Shown: positions 16,308 to 23,947, numbered from the stretch's first letter. The stretch is DNA of 64,000 bases from an uncultured Gammaproteobacteria bacterium (GCA_964429215.1 CAYSAY010000004.1:8421-72420), one strand, 5' to 3'. Program-made: numbers and translations. Notes: generated by a model from the sequence alone, not told the origin.

Positions 16308-17768
16308 ATGTGGATTATATTTGCCCTAGAAAACCTCTATTTTGCCTTGCATATATTTGCAGGATTAACTCTGTTTGCCGTCGCCTGGCTTTACTTTGAT
16401 GCTTGGAAAGCCTTGAAAACTAATAGAGAAGTCTGGAAAATATTTGCCTTTATCATTTTAGGTATATCATTCTTACTTCGCGGTATGGATATGCGAGGTA
16501 TTGAGGCACTTCAAAATGTCGATCTTTATTTAAGAGTTTTTGGTTATTTATTGCTAACAATTGGGTTACTCATAGATCCGTTACAGCCTCGTCCAAAAGA
16601 AGAATCTAGAGCTTTCTTGTTGCCACTATTTGTTCCGTTTTTCTTTCTCCCGCCTGTGTTGTCTGTCATTGTGGCGGTTTTGTACCTACGAAGAGCAAGT
16701 ATTGGCTTAGAAAGGCATATTTATCCACCTAGTATATCCTTCTTTTTGTTTTCCGTTTATGAATTGATTTTTAGTCTTAATAATTTCAGAGTTACAACAA
16801 ACCTTAATTTGTTTAATTTACTTGCACCATTTGGACCTGTTTGGATATTGGAAATTACTATATTGTTTTTTGCAATTCTATTCTTGGGTCGTTGGGTATT
16901 TAGATATTTATTAAAACAGTTCCAGTCACAGCTCTTTATGGTCATGATGGGGTTAGTTTTATCTATCTATTTAATCGTTACAGTAGGCTTTACAGGACTA
17001 CTTTTGAATAACTTAAAATCACAAATTTTACAGGAGCTTTCATCTCAAGCAAAAGTATTAGAATTTGCATTTAATGCCAAAAAAAGTGAACTTCTATCAG
17101 ATGCAAAGCTAATTGCAAATATAGTAAAAAATGATGCAACAGTACCACAATTGACACATGATAGTCTGGTAATCTTTGATAAAGATGGGATAGTAACATA
17201 TAGAGCCGAAGATCCTGAAAGAAAAGGCGATTCAATATCTGGTGACTTACTAGTCAAACAGGTTTTAGCAGCAAAGGAAAGCTCAAATATAATTGTAAAA
17301 GACGGAGTAGTAGCACCAACTGTAATGGTTGTCTCTGGCTCTCCAATCGTCACAGACGGCAAAATAAGCGGTGGAGTTATGGTAGAATTGATAGCAGTTA
17401 TCTTGAAGGCTTTAGTAAGCTTACAGGGCTTAAGTCTGCAGTTTATGGCAACAACATATTAAGTGCAGGTGGAACTGTTGGAATTGTCGAATCAAATAAA
17501 GAAGTCAAAGAAATAGTTTTACGTAAAGGCGAATTAATACAGCTTGAAAATAGATGGTTAAATACCCAATTTTTATCAGTTTACTCTCCACTTAAGGATG
17601 TTGACGGAAATCCTGTTGGAATGTTTTTTGTAGGTAGGCCTCAGGTGGAAGTGCTAAGTCTTGCAAGTAAAACCTTAGAGTCAATATTTTTAGGCACAAT
17701 AATATTACTTTTATTATCTATGATACCTGCAAAATTGATTGCAACCAGTATTACAAAACAAATCAAAT
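16308..17768 (+). pseudogene. membrane sensor (multi-TM N-terminus plus Cache-like periplasmic domain plus C-terminal TM) interrupted by a frameshift near 17460 and ending where a HAMP domain would begin
   Basis: ORF 16308..17462 ends ...LQFMATTY. The frame starting at 17465 continues AGGTVGIVESNKEVKEIVLRKGELIQLENRWLNTQFLSVYSPLKDVDGNPVGMFFVGRPQ...TIILLLLSMIPAKLIATSITKQIK and then stops. Confidence 0.5.
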
Positions 17769-18168
17769 GACTAAAGACAAAGTTATATTTAGTATAGGAA
17801 TTTTTATAAGTCTAATTGTTATTGGAACAAGTGGATTTTTGTATTATAAAAAACAGTTAATAATTAATAGTGAAAAATTAATAATTGTAACAAAACCAAC
17901 ACAAATACCAGAACCGACAAAAACTCCAGAAGTTAACTATAAAAATACAGAGATTCAAGTTTTAAACGGGTCTGGGAAGGCAGGTCTTGCTAAAACTTAT
18001 GCAGATAAATTAACTATTTTGGGATATACAAAAATTACAACAGGAAATTATACAGAAATAATTACAGGTAATTTGTTGTTTGCGCCTACAGATTTTGGAA
18101 AAGAGATAAATTTAGAAAATTATACATATGAGAAGTCAGACCTGATTAAAATAATAATATCTAAATGA
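17767..18168 (+). CDS. small membrane protein with LytR_C-like domain
   Basis: N-terminal TM helix; VLNGSGKAGLAKTYADKLTILGYTKIT resembles the LytR C-terminal domain. Confidence 0.5.
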   Translation: MTKDKVIFSIGIFISLIVIGTSGFLYYKKQLIINSEKLIIVTKPTQIPEPTKTPEVNYKNTEIQVLNGSGKAGLAKTYADKLTILGYTKITTGNYTEIITGNLLFAPTDFGKEINLENYTYEKSDLIKIIISK

Positions 18169-19691
18169 CAATACGAAACAAAGCAATAGTAACACTTGCG
18201 ATTGGGACAGCCGTAATGATGGCTGCGTCTATCTTTATTACGTCCAAATTGTTTGGTGAGAAAATGGACCAACTTGAGATTCAAAAATCTACGCTAGACA
18301 TGGAGAGAATTGATGGGGCGATAGCCTCTGAAGTAACGAACCTTAGTGAAAAAATGGCAGATTGGGCATCATGGGATGATTCATATCAATTTATACAGGA
18401 TAAAAATCAAAGCTACATTGCTTCAAATTTAGAGACGTCAGCTTCGTTTGAGAGTCTAAGGTTAAGTTTTATGATTTTTGTAGATATTGATGGGAAAACA
18501 GTTTACGGTGTTGGATATGACCAAAAAGAAAAAAAGATTGTTGCTGTTCCGGATGGAATTAATAAATATCTAGTAAAAGATAAATACTTATTAAAATTTG
18601 ATGATATATCAAGTGATAATTCTGGAATGCTAATACTCCCAGATGGAATAACACTAGTTTCTGCAAGACAGATTTTAACTAGTAATTCTGAAGGCCCACC
18701 AATGGGAACAATAATATTTGGGAGGTTGTTTGATGAAACAGAAATTCATAATTTAGCACAAATTACAAAGCATACAAAAATTAATTTTTTACCTATCGAT
18801 GGTACAGAGATAAATAATACCGAGATAAAAATAATTGATGAAAAAGAATTAGAAGGAAGAGGTTTAATAAAAGATGTTTTTGGCAATTCAATAGCATTAT
18901 ACAGTGTAAAAATGCCTCGGGATATTCATTTACAAGGTGTCCAAGGTACAGAGTACCTTACCACTTTCTTAGTTGGAATCTTTGTTGTCTTTTTTACACT
19001 TACAATTTTATTTTTAAGCAAATTTGTATTAAATCCAATTAAAAATATTACAAAAAACGTTAATTTAATTACTCATTCAAAAGATATTACATCAAGAATT
19101 AATTTTTCAGGAAATGATGAATTTGGATCACTTTCAAGAGATATTAACTTGATGCTTGATTCAATTGAATTATCTAAAGATAAAGCATTTATAGAAGCTG
19201 AGAAAACCAAACAGTTTTTTGATGTGGTATCGGGAATAGTTGTCGTTTTAGACAAAAATGGTTTGGTCTCAATTATTAATAAAAAAGGAGTGGGGTTTTT
19301 AGGTTACGAATCCTCTGAAATGCTTGGAAAGAATTGGATAGACAATTTTATACCGGAAAACGAAAGAGAATCTGCAAAGTCTGTATTTAATGTACTTATT
19401 AGATCAAAAGAAATAAATGATGATATTTATCATGAGAATAATGTTTTACTTAAAACTGGGGGTATGGCACTTGTTGGTTGGTATAACACAGTATTAAAGG
19501 ATTCAAATGGTCAAATACAAGCGACAGTAAGTCACGGTGAGGATATTACAGCTAAAAAGAAAAAAGAGGTTCTTGATCAAAAGCAAAGAGAAGAATTAGA
19601 AAGACTTAATCAAACTATGGTAGGTAGAGAAATTAAAATGATCGAATTAAAAAAAGAAATTGAAAGTTTAAAGAATCGAGGTGATATATAA
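18165..19691 (+). CDS. membrane sensor CHASE4-TM-HAMP-PAS-coiled coil, no kinase or other output domain
   Basis: ADWASWDDSYQFI CHASE4 signature between two TM helices, PAS-like block VSGIVVVLDKNGLVSIINKKGVGFLGYESSEMLGKNW; ends in a coiled coil. Confidence 0.6.
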   Translation: MTIRNKAIVTLAIGTAVMMAASIFITSKLFGEKMDQLEIQKSTLDMERIDGAIASEVTNLSEKMADWASWDDSYQFIQDKNQSYIASNLETSASFESLRLSFMIFVDIDGKTVYGVGYDQKEKKIVAVPDGINKYLVKDKYLLKFDDISSDNSGMLILPDGITLVSARQILTSNSEGPPMGTIIFGRLFDETEIHNLAQITKHTKINFLPIDGTEINNTEIKIIDEKELEGRGLIKDVFGNSIALYSVKMPRDIHLQGVQGTEYLTTFLVGIFVVFFTLTILFLSKFVLNPIKNITKNVNLITHSKDITSRINFSGNDEFGSLSRDINLMLDSIELSKDKAFIEAEKTKQFFDVVSGIVVVLDKNGLVSIINKKGVGFLGYESSEMLGKNWIDNFIPENERESAKSVFNVLIRSKEINDDIYHENNVLLKTGGMALVGWYNTVLKDSNGQIQATVSHGEDITAKKKKEVLDQKQREELERLNQTMVGREIKMIELKKEIESLKNRGDI

Positions 19692-23155: not shown

Positions 23156-23503
23156 ATGATAACAATACAGGATAGATCGTTTAAGTTTGGAGTTGAGATT
23201 GTTAAATTAACATTTTTATTACCCAAATCTCCAGCTGGATATGCATTGGCCAGTCAAATTGTTCGGTCTGGCACTTCGATTGGTGCAAATATTGAAGAAG
23301 CTCAAGGCGCTTCATCAAAGAAGGATTTTGTAAATAAGATGCAAATTTCACTCAAGGAAGCTCGAGAAACTTACTTTTGGCTAAAAATATTAAGAGAATC
23401 TAAATTGGTCCAGTTGGAAAATATAAGCTACTTATTGCAAGAGTGTGAAGAAGTGGTTAAAATCTTAATAACAATAGTCAAAAATTCAAAACTTAATAAA
23501 TAA
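23156..23503 (+). CDS. four-helix-bundle protein (23S rRNA intervening-sequence protein family, TIGR02436-like)
   Basis: FKFGVEIVKLTFLLP...SGTSIGANIEEAQGASSKKDFVNKMQISLKEARETYFWLKI is the typical family signature. Confidence 0.8.
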   Translation: MITIQDRSFKFGVEIVKLTFLLPKSPAGYALASQIVRSGTSIGANIEEAQGASSKKDFVNKMQISLKEARETYFWLKILRESKLVQLENISYLLQECEEVVKILITIVKNSKLNK

Positions 23504-23545
23504 TTTTTGTTTTAATTATTAACTATTAATTATTAACTATTAATT
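23504..23545. repeat. right flank: tandem AATTATTAACT(A) copies, the reverse complement of the left-flank AGTTAATAATT
   Basis: ttaattattaactattaattattaactattaattatg read directly from sequence. Confidence 0.5.
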
Positions 23546-23947
23546 ATGTCAACCAAAGTATTAATTGTTGAGGATGACCCATTGATGAGTCGGATGTATC
23601 AAAAGATATTCACTTTTGAAGGATATGAAGTTGTCATGGCTGGAAACGGCGAAGATGGCTTGGAAAAAGCAAAGAAAGACACCCCAACTATAATTCTTCT
23701 TGATGTCATGATGCCTAAGATGAACGGTTTGGAGATGTTGGAGAAATTAAAACTTGATCCAAAAAGTAAATCCATTCCCGTTATTATGCTCACTAATTTA
23801 GCAGGAGAAAAGGATGCAGAAAATGCATTGTCTAAAGGAGCTGTAAAGTATATTGTAAAGTCTGAATATGAACCCAAACAAGTTGTTGATATGGTCAAAG
23901 AAATTTTGGCAGGTTATACCAGAGATTTAGTTCCAGAAGCAAAATAA
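23546..23947 (+). CDS. response regulator, receiver domain only
   Basis: KVLIVEDDPLM...ILLDVMMPKMNG...; 133 aa with no output domain. Confidence 0.85.
   Translation: MSTKVLIVEDDPLMSRMYQKIFTFEGYEVVMAGNGEDGLEKAKKDTPTIILLDVMMPKMNGLEMLEKLKLDPKSKSIPVIMLTNLAGEKDAENALSKGAVKYIVKSEYEPKQVVDMVKEILAGYTRDLVPEAK

Follow-up and report, generated by a model that had tools for sequence, protein, structure and literature searches.

We analysed a window of 64,000 nucleotides (nt) from an assembly titled uncultured Gammaproteobacteria bacterium (GCA_964429215.1 CAYSAY010000004.1:8421-72420); the window means this whole stretch, and coordinates are counted from its first letter. On balance, we favour the view that a sensor-rich block within it is one copy of a gene cluster conserved across the candidate phyla radiation (CPR, or Patescibacteria), and that the cluster encodes a two-component system with several inputs, in which a stand-alone receiver, and not a transcription factor, provides the output. 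The block contains nine ORFs (open reading frames) at close spacing on the plus strand (13002-23947): S705 (13002..15119), a Fic-family gene (15194..16246) and seven genes, referred to here as A to G. Gene A (16308..17770) belongs to a family of proteins with seven transmembrane (TM) helices, a dCache domain and an eighth TM helix (TM8), without a cytoplasmic output domain, and is frameshifted here, most likely a pseudogene. It is followed by gene B (17767..18168), which encodes a protein of 133 amino acids (aa) with a TM helix and a LytR_C domain, gene C (18165..19691) for a sensor without a kinase domain, gene D (19691..20713) for a substrate-binding protein, gene E (20715..23045) for a histidine kinase, gene F (23156..23503) for a four-helix-bundle protein and gene G (23546..23947) for the receiver.

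The A/B and B/C junctions both read ATGA, with the start codon of B overlapping the native stop codon of A, the C/D junction reads ATAATGA (a TAATG overlap), and D and E are separated by a 1-nt gap. Junctions as tight as these indicate that genes A to E are read as one operon. A promoter and terminator scan of 15000-24600 gave counts not above the shuffled expectation and provided no usable operon boundaries, and an Rfam search of the window returned two tRNAs only, both outside the block, and no riboswitch or other known RNA within it. A preliminary description made from the sequence had assigned most of these domains, and Pfam agreed: LytR_C in the small protein after gene A (1.3e-7), CHASE4 (2.3e-34), HAMP and PAS without a transmitter in the gene at 18165, an NMT1-like binding protein (2.3e-51) followed by a full Cache-HAMP-PAS histidine kinase, and single REC domains in both response regulators of the window, at 5449 and 23546. 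The translational coupling of C to D that it had proposed was likewise found at the ATAATGA junction.

The evidence for a conserved cluster comes from gene order. One genome per species was taken, giving 64 loci, and the window proteins were searched against all their ORFs. For the 58 copies of gene A with at least 4 kb of downstream sequence, we counted genes on the same strand within 8 kb. A kinase like E was present in 45 of the 58 and a REC-only protein like G in 47, with both, the kinase before REC, in 39; a kinase, a REC protein or both followed A in 53/58. A kinase-less sensor resembling C was found in 23/58, a LytR_C protein in 15/58 and an NMT1 protein in 8/58, and five copies had none of these five gene types. 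The recurrent order is S705, A, none to two kinase-less sensors of the C type with a conserved C-terminal tail, sometimes D, then E and G, and the cluster is often closed by a LytR_C protein like B after the REC gene. All specifically named records among the 64 loci are Patescibacteria, namely Woese-, Gottesman-, Levy-, Roizman-, Shapiro- and Collierbacteria, and Saccharibacteria. The idea, already put forward in the preliminary description, that accessory sensors feed one kinase with output through protein-protein contact is supported by the order of genes in dozens of Patescibacteria loci, by the fusion kinase P0103 described below and by the high conservation of the REC protein.

The closest syntenic relative (L072) carries, in order, a RhuM gene on the minus strand, an S705-like gene, a Fic gene, an intact gene A (498 aa), a LytR_C gene, a CHASE-PAS kinase-less sensor, a kinase, a REC gene and a 208-aa gene on the minus strand. 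The layout equals that of the window, but without the NMT1 gene, the gene F type and the frameshift. Gene A is also intact in the closest named relative, Ca. Woesebacteria MFD02832 (L008, the same as L006; contig_14423). In that genome the S705 homologue is split into pieces of 360, 256 and 101 aa, the LytR_C gene into 55 and 96 aa and the kinase into 269 and 521 aa, and a transposase lies between the REC and CHASE4 genes. The split genes are either real decay or assembly indel errors.

The kinase and receiver genes of the cluster are intact in the window. The product of gene E contains dCache_1, a TM helix, HAMP, an S-helix or coiled coil, PAS, HisKA (7.4e-17) and HATPase_c (1.1e-24), and so has both the dimerisation/phospho-acceptor domain, with its H-box, and the ATPase domain of a histidine kinase, with N, G1, F and G2 boxes; its translation shows the motifs SHELRTPL, NIIGNSLKFT, DTGVGI and GTGLGL. 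Its best NCBIfam resemblances are to WalK, PnpS and PhoR, all below cutoff. Gene G encodes a receiver of 133 aa (Response_reg, 1.3e-26) whose acidic pocket and phospho-acceptor Asp lie in the motifs EDD, LLDVMMP, LTN and KYIVK, conserved in 51 orthologues from the loci. At 60-85% identity to these orthologues (median 72%), G is the best conserved protein of the cluster, and its closest solved structure is RR468 of T. maritima (E about 1e-23). Gene E thus encodes an intact sensor histidine kinase, and the catalytic motifs of G are likewise intact. Response regulators typically, although not obligatorily, carry an effector domain, for example one that binds DNA. Both G and the second receiver of the window (119 aa) consist of a REC domain only, with no effector domain.

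Gene D lies between C and E in the same orientation and encodes a signal-anchored protein of the NMT1/THI5 (SsuA-like) type, with a match to NCBIfam SsuA_fam below cutoff. There are no ABC permease or ATPase genes in the operon, the other genes being A, B, C, E, F and G. The order of C-like sensor, substrate-binding protein and kinase recurs in four further loci (L024, L034, L036 and L054).

The CHASE4 domain of gene C (PF05228, aa 52-203) is flanked by TM helices and followed by HAMP (283-335), PAS (352-465) and a conserved C-terminal tail (19584..19688, EELERLNQTMVGREIKMIELKKEIESLK). We found no transmitter or other output domain in the protein (GGDEF, EAL, HD-GYP or kinase). Its approximately 18 closest homologues, of 460-524 aa and 32-74% identity at near-full coverage, also have none, and 12 of 14 aligned homologues end in EELERLNxxMVGRELKMIELKKEIxxLK plus a few residues. 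Output domains occur only in the fusion P0103 and in distant relatives, those with CHASE4 carrying histidine kinase, GGDEF or EAL domains. Gene C therefore belongs to a natively kinase-less, output-less family.

The tail motif MVGRELKMIELK was found in 24 ORFs of the related loci, ranging from 72 to 1167 aa and bearing varied N-terminal sensors. In the CPR loci its distance from the C-terminus is always 5-49 residues, and no protein combines it with an H-box. Nine of the tail-bearing ORFs abut a kinase gene and 17 have a kinase no more than 2.6 kb downstream; in three loci (L034, L036 and L054) a binding-protein gene stands between the tail-bearing ORF and the kinase, as in the window. Fragments from other phyla, including some kinases and cyclases, have the motif in an internal position with more sequence after it; it is therefore a coiled-coil linker there and a free end in the CPR loci. 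A profile search of a large protein database with the motif returned mostly ORFs of 35-74 aa and fragments, so that no census of architectures could be drawn from it, and no significant PDB match was obtained. In one locus (L057) a 72-aa ORF (11602-11820) with little beyond the MVGRELKMIELK tail separates the gene A homologue from the kinase. Other short ORFs (41-73 aa) that contain hardly anything but the tail, with or without an S-helix, are P0294, P0297, P0304, P0323 and P0337, some of them on long contigs. These tail-only ORFs may be stand-alone modulators or miscalled pieces.

Besides translational coupling and the abutment of tail-bearing ORFs on kinase genes, a fusion links C to the kinase. 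At the syntenic position in L072, residues 1-345 of the kinase P0103 match the CHASE4-TM-HAMP part of C (53% identity, E 9e-117) and residues 265-741 match the HAMP-S-helix-PAS-HisKA-HATPase part of E (57% identity, E 6e-180). This Rosetta-stone protein is the strongest evidence here that the sensor of C and the transmitter of E belong to one pathway.

For gene A, homologue and domain searches were made with a repaired protein in which the reading frame was restored. The preliminary description had given this gene a multi-TM region and a Cache-like domain, and the Pfam scan of the repaired protein confirmed both (sCache_3_3 scored 36.8 bits, its cutoff being 28.8; the scores for dCache_3 and CHASE4 were under their thresholds). 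Nearly all of its 93 homologues (483-540 aa) aligned with 100% coverage, and all aligned homologues end within one or two residues of ...SI(T/S)KQIK, about 10 residues past the last TM helix. None of the 93 contains a HAMP domain or a kinase. When 1.84 billion representatives were searched exhaustively by phmmer, with the seven-helix part as query, 274 representatives were recovered, nearly all of 500-560 aa (the longest of 661 aa) and none fused to a kinase. Lengths this uniform indicate that the bundle exists only in this architecture of seven TM helices, dCache and a final TM helix. Based on these comparisons, ITKQIK is the native C-terminus of the family, and gene A represents a distinct, natively output-less one. 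The claim that the reading frame continues in the -1 frame through a TM helix to ITKQIK was correct; its interpretation as the start of a HAMP domain was not.

The AlphaFold2 model of an intact homologue (P0002; predicted local distance difference test score, pLDDT, 89) shows six TM helices, a seventh that extends as a long stalk helix, two PDC modules and a return helix that forms TM8. In a Foldseek search, the ectodomain matched dCache ligand-binding domains such as those of PctA, Tlp3, Mlp24, LuxQ, KinD and DctB (E 1e-6 to 1e-4). Gene A thus has a seven-helix membrane bundle and a Cache/PDC fold between two TM helices, and lacks a covalently attached cytoplasmic transmitter (kinase, methyl-accepting chemotaxis protein, GGDEF and the like). 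Residues 1-236 have no Pfam or NCBIfam family match, and a PDB sequence profile search with the TM domain gave weak matches only, to Cache and WalK ectodomains. Conservation is highest in two motifs, LYLRRAxxGLExH in the segment joining TM4 to TM5 and WVFxYLLKQFQSQ in that joining TM6 to TM7. They are on the face opposite the dCache domain, which places them on the cytoplasmic side.

It is hardly conceivable that A and C are decaying remnants of full histidine kinases that have lost their transmitters. The kinase, GGDEF and EAL domains of distant CHASE4 relatives and the internal position of the tail motif in kinases and cyclases of other phyla could be read in this way, but the data contradict it: the C-termini of A and C are conserved across dozens of full-length homologues, the TM domain of A is never fused to a kinase among the 274 representatives, and the tail is always terminal in CPR loci. 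The earlier suggestion of ongoing decay in a paralogous sensor therefore stands for the internal frameshift of gene A and fails for A as a decayed kinase paralogue.

The gene A lesion itself could be located by comparison with relatives (L008-L011 and P0001-P0003, DNA and protein). The ORF at 16308-17462 encodes 384 aa with the multi-TM N-terminus and the Cache-type ectodomain. Frame 0 covers 16308 to about 17390; the -1 frame (frame 2) covers 17387 to 17770, passing the last TM helix to ...SITKQIK and the TGA at 17768-17770. The break had previously been placed at 17460, but the homologue alignment puts the lesion at 17384..17392 (+), and the premature TAA at 17460..17462 only marks the point where the wrong frame ends. 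At the lesion, homologues read GGVMVGELIDNSYLEGF and the window reads GTA|GAA TTG AT|AGC; at the DNA level, one relative has GTC GGT GAT TTG ATT GAT AAC compared with GTA GAA TTG AT AGC in the window. In translation, homologues have GGV(M/I)VG(E/D)LIDNSYLEGFSKLTG, whereas the window has GGVMV-EL in frame 0, continued by IDSSYLEGFSKLTG once the -1 frame is followed. The frameshifted allele (GTAGAATTGATAGC across the lesion) lacks a conserved Gly codon between 17384 and 17385 and 4 nt of a TTGATTGAT repeat within 17388-17392, a net loss of 7 nt that shifts the frame by -1.

Independently assembled contigs from ERR3094302, ERR3094292, ERZ27247817, ERZ27247785 and ERZ27247828, five assemblies made with two or more assemblers from two or more read sets, match the window with 100% identity across the lesion, and its context contains no homopolymer. 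An assembly error is therefore very unlikely, and the frameshift is real. The preliminary description had allowed for such an error, with a gene continuing into a kinase domain; the five assemblies were identical and no kinase-fused homologue was found. That the organism has an intact A and the frameshift is a sequencing or assembly artefact is very improbable and contradicted by the data. Metagenome-assembled genomes may carry indels, and the downstream frame is perfectly kept, but the loss of a codon together with 4 nt is no single-base error, and the protein search with repaired A found no intact allele above 81% identity.

The 127 out-of-frame codons contain no stop, for which the chance is about 5e-5 at the local base composition. 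Identity to intact homologues is still 83-87% in the out-of-frame part and so not below that of the in-frame part (76-79%), which indicates that the lesion is very recent. Gene A is thus most likely a fresh pseudogene in this population and the only disrupted gene of the cluster here, every other gene being intact. The break falls between the two PDC modules and splits the dCache domain. In the -1 frame the first and only start codon, at 17621, would give a stub of 49 aa, and by inspection there is no X XXY YYZ slippery heptamer at 17380-17462; consequently, neither the last TM helix nor the second PDC module is likely to be produced. A programmed frameshift or a split but functional A was considered and judged unlikely on these three grounds. 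In addition, three short MEGAHIT contigs in ENA (L003-L005) carry the frameshifted gene and are equivalent to window positions 16276-17833. All three break at ~16276-16293 and ~17764-17833, the borders of gene A, which hints at strain-level variation in the flanks of the gene in those samples.

The preliminary description had missed S705, although across Patescibacteria no other gene accompanies gene A as constantly. In 53/59 cases A is preceded on the same strand, at a distance of at most 1.8 kb, by an S705 homologue, and in 43 the distance is within 150 nt. The protein (705 aa, secreted or anchored) has a signal anchor, CARDB/FN3/Big Ig-like domains with weak Pfam matches to FN3, Big and Redoxin, and a C-terminal thioredoxin fold of the ResA/CycY/TlpA type (residues 589-701 matched by PDB 1kng, E 1e-5). 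In all of the approximately 60 homologues W-x-P replaces WCxxC and no CxxC is present (SWSVG in the window). The family also has a conserved Cys just past the signal peptide (…SC(S/T)A(S/T)V…). The Fic gene (Pfam Fic 4e-12) between S705 and A is present at the equivalent position in L072, but most other loci lack it and have S705 directly next to gene A; it is apparently specific to this sub-lineage. Upstream, a RhuM-family gene (11931-12941, -) adjoins S705, and RhuM lies beside S705 also in L006 and L072.

It is possible, although rather unlikely, that S705 and A constitute a module of their own that happens to precede the two-component genes, such as an envelope or surface-protein receptor or an anchoring or biogenesis device, and that A provides no input to E. 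The adjacency of S705 and A is the tightest link of the cluster, C, D, E and G are intact in this strain despite the loss of A, and B and other LytR_C proteins point to the cell wall. On the other hand, a kinase gene, a REC gene or both follow A on the same strand in 53/58 cases, overlapping stop and start codons tie A to B and B to C in the window, and dCache is a ligand-binding sensor fold.

If the block is a multi-input two-component system, as we favour, E would be its single transmitter. D would bind a small ligand and, in the manner of LuxP on LuxQ, dock on an extracytoplasmic sensor domain of either E or C, while C would sense through CHASE4 and PAS and modulate E through its HAMP, PAS and coiled-coil tail in a hetero-complex. 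Through its dCache domain, an intact A would detect a cue outside the cell, which may be the state of S705, the envelope or the wall, the last being suggested by the LytR_C partner. By way of the seven-helix bundle and the loops LYLRRAxxGLExH and WVFxYLLKQFQSQ it would relay this cue to either the kinase or the receiver. E would phosphorylate G, and phosphorylated G would bind a conserved protein partner, not DNA. In this lineage the input through A would just have been lost and the C/D/E/G system would remain. We infer the action of A, C and D on E, and the role of G as substrate of E, from gene order, one fusion and analogy.

Several observations weigh against this interpretation. The link of A to S705 (53/59) is at least as tight as that of A to the kinase (45/58). 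REC often comes directly after A in Saccharibacteria, the kinase being encoded elsewhere; A may therefore not be a kinase input, and its loss while the rest is intact argues that A is not essential for the kinase pathway. The charge bias of A is uninformative for the first three helices (K+R 7.8 and 7.7 on the two sides), which leaves their topology unsettled. Finally, 24 of the 64 record titles name non-CPR organisms (uncultured Gammaproteobacteria, Pseudomonadales and Methanoperedens). These are probably mislabelled bins, a suspicion that arises because the sequences and gene order of the loci interleave with those of named Patescibacteria. Loci titled in this way and carrying the same S705-A-kinase-REC cluster are L009, L010, L013, L015-L017, L019, L021-L024, L026 and L027, and also L035, L039, L041-L043, L052-L054, L059, L060, L069 and L070.

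The frequent adjacency of A and REC without a kinase between them in Saccharibacteria would also fit an inside-out wiring, in which A is the target and the phosphorylated REC protein binds its cytoplasmic loops and alters the dCache/S705 surface complex. The absence of an encoded DNA-binding output, the extreme conservation of REC and the cytoplasmic position of the two best conserved motifs of A point in the same direction. We nevertheless regard this arrangement as improbable, since it is inference only, Cache domains are known as input domains and the pathway persists here without A. A bolder proposal, which we advance tentatively and consider somewhat doubtful, is that the gene A family is an undescribed CPR-specific receptor class, which S705 and the tail-bearing sensors join as the principal apparatus for contact with the environment or host. 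Such a receptor would combine a bundle of seven helices, like that of a G-protein-coupled receptor, with a helix 7 that extends into the extracellular dCache domain, an eighth TM helix that closes it and no covalent output. It would signal through its two invariant cytoplasmic loops to a free partner, namely the extremely conserved REC-only protein or the kinase, with a non-transcriptional output.

LytR_C genes were found in 15/58 homologous clusters, usually after the REC gene. Gene F (23S_rRNA_IVP; Pfam 1.8e-25) is located between the kinase and REC genes in the window and is absent from that position in relatives. It is flanked by five copies of the 10-mer AGTTAATAAT, which occurs nine times in the window against an expectation of 0.81: three direct copies precede F (23044-23150, +) and two inverted copies follow it (23515-23538, -), the others being at 17855, 35276, 38099 and 38120. 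This arrangement is like the ends of a small inserted cassette, or like an operator pair. A 51-nt stretch in the LytR_C gene (17855-17905) is 84% identical to 23044-23094. A diversity-generating retroelement, with F as its Avd-like protein, was considered and dropped because the window contains no pair of template and variable repeats. Downstream, a 205-aa ORF (23958-24575, -) converges on the REC gene; it has two N-terminal TM helices, an internal twin-arginine-like motif RRKFLKLIGAAGGSLF and no Pfam match, and the 208-aa ORF of L072 occupies the equivalent position.

Elsewhere in the window, a second two-component pair is encoded on the minus strand (5449..7443), consisting of a dCache_1-HisKA-HATPase kinase (5821-7443) and a REC-only regulator (5449-5808). 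It lies between two large minus-strand ORFs, 2825-5428 (867 aa) and 7449-11927 (1492 aa), neither of which has a Pfam match. A giant minus-strand ORF (27087-34820, 2577 aa) contains an internal direct repeat of 300 nt (30964-31263 and 32980-33279) with 79% identity, and its region has the highest G+C of the window (0.40-0.46).

The CPR is a huge, mostly uncultured radiation of bacteria with tiny genomes and few transcription factors. A cluster in fixed order from Microgenomates to Saccharibacteria is a concrete and testable candidate for their main sensory pathway. The analysis also defines two uncatalogued elements, a seven-helix domain that no family model covers and, as a mark of kinase-less sensors, the terminal MVGRELKMIELK tail. 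For the wiring of the pathway, ready comparisons are offered by natural domain swaps such as P0103 and by this strain, in which the lead gene has been knocked out naturally. The interest would be considerably greater if the receptor proposal were true. In the literature, we found no description of the cluster or of either output-less family (A or C). CPR genomes encode about 0.16-0.29 kinases per 100 genes (PMC10805038), and with kinases this scarce the cluster is probably a main signalling device of the CPR.

The arrangement of D and E is comparable to LuxP/LuxQ and TorT/TorS. As in those systems, the gene for a binding protein stands beside that for a kinase, without transporter genes, E has the double PDC/dCache fold of LuxQ, and the LuxQ periplasmic domain is among the fold matches of the ectodomain of A. 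In contrast, D is of the NMT1/SsuA type, no hybrid kinase, Hpt relay or DNA-binding output is encoded here, and the docking of D on E is presumed by analogy. The presence of output-less membrane proteins (A and C) in an operon with a kinase resembles WalK-YycH/YycI, LiaS-LiaF and BceS-BceAB. WalK is the best NCBIfam resemblance of E, and TM7 and the ectodomain of A weakly match the WalK N-terminus, all far below cutoffs, and the LytR_C protein hints at a connection with the cell wall. However, A and C have no sequence relationship to YycH/YycI, LiaF or BceB, and A combines a seven-helix bundle with dCache.

Seven-helix receptors of bacteria, including the 7TMR-DISM family, were reportedly described by Anantharaman and Aravind in 2003. 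Gene A resembles 7TMR-DISM in pairing a seven-helix bundle with an extracellular ligand-binding domain, but in A the ectodomain comes after TM7 and not before TM1, an eighth TM helix closes it, an attached cytoplasmic output is always lacking, and A matches none of the 7TMR-DISM, 7TMR-HD, 5TMR-LYT or MASE models of Pfam and NCBIfam. Control of one sensor kinase by another sensor protein through a heteromer is known from RetS and GacS, RetS retaining kinase-like domains. C is similar in being a sensor-HAMP-PAS-coiled-coil chain without a catalytic part beside a kinase, which is consistent with a hetero-complex, but it ends in a 25-aa coiled-coil tail and lacks kinase-like domains. G is a REC-only protein like CheY, DivK, Spo0F and RR468 and presumably acts through protein-protein contact or as an element of a phosphorelay or phosphate sink, although no chemotaxis, Hpt or DivL/PleC-type partners are encoded near it. 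Overall, the parts are of known kinds, namely Cache, CHASE4, HAMP, PAS, an NMT1 binding protein, a HisKA kinase and a single-domain receiver. The family with seven TM helices, dCache and a final TM helix, its seven-helix domain, the terminal MVGRELKMIELK tail, the pseudo-thioredoxin partner and the conservation of the whole ensemble across a phylum-level, kinase-poor radiation appear to be new or uncatalogued.

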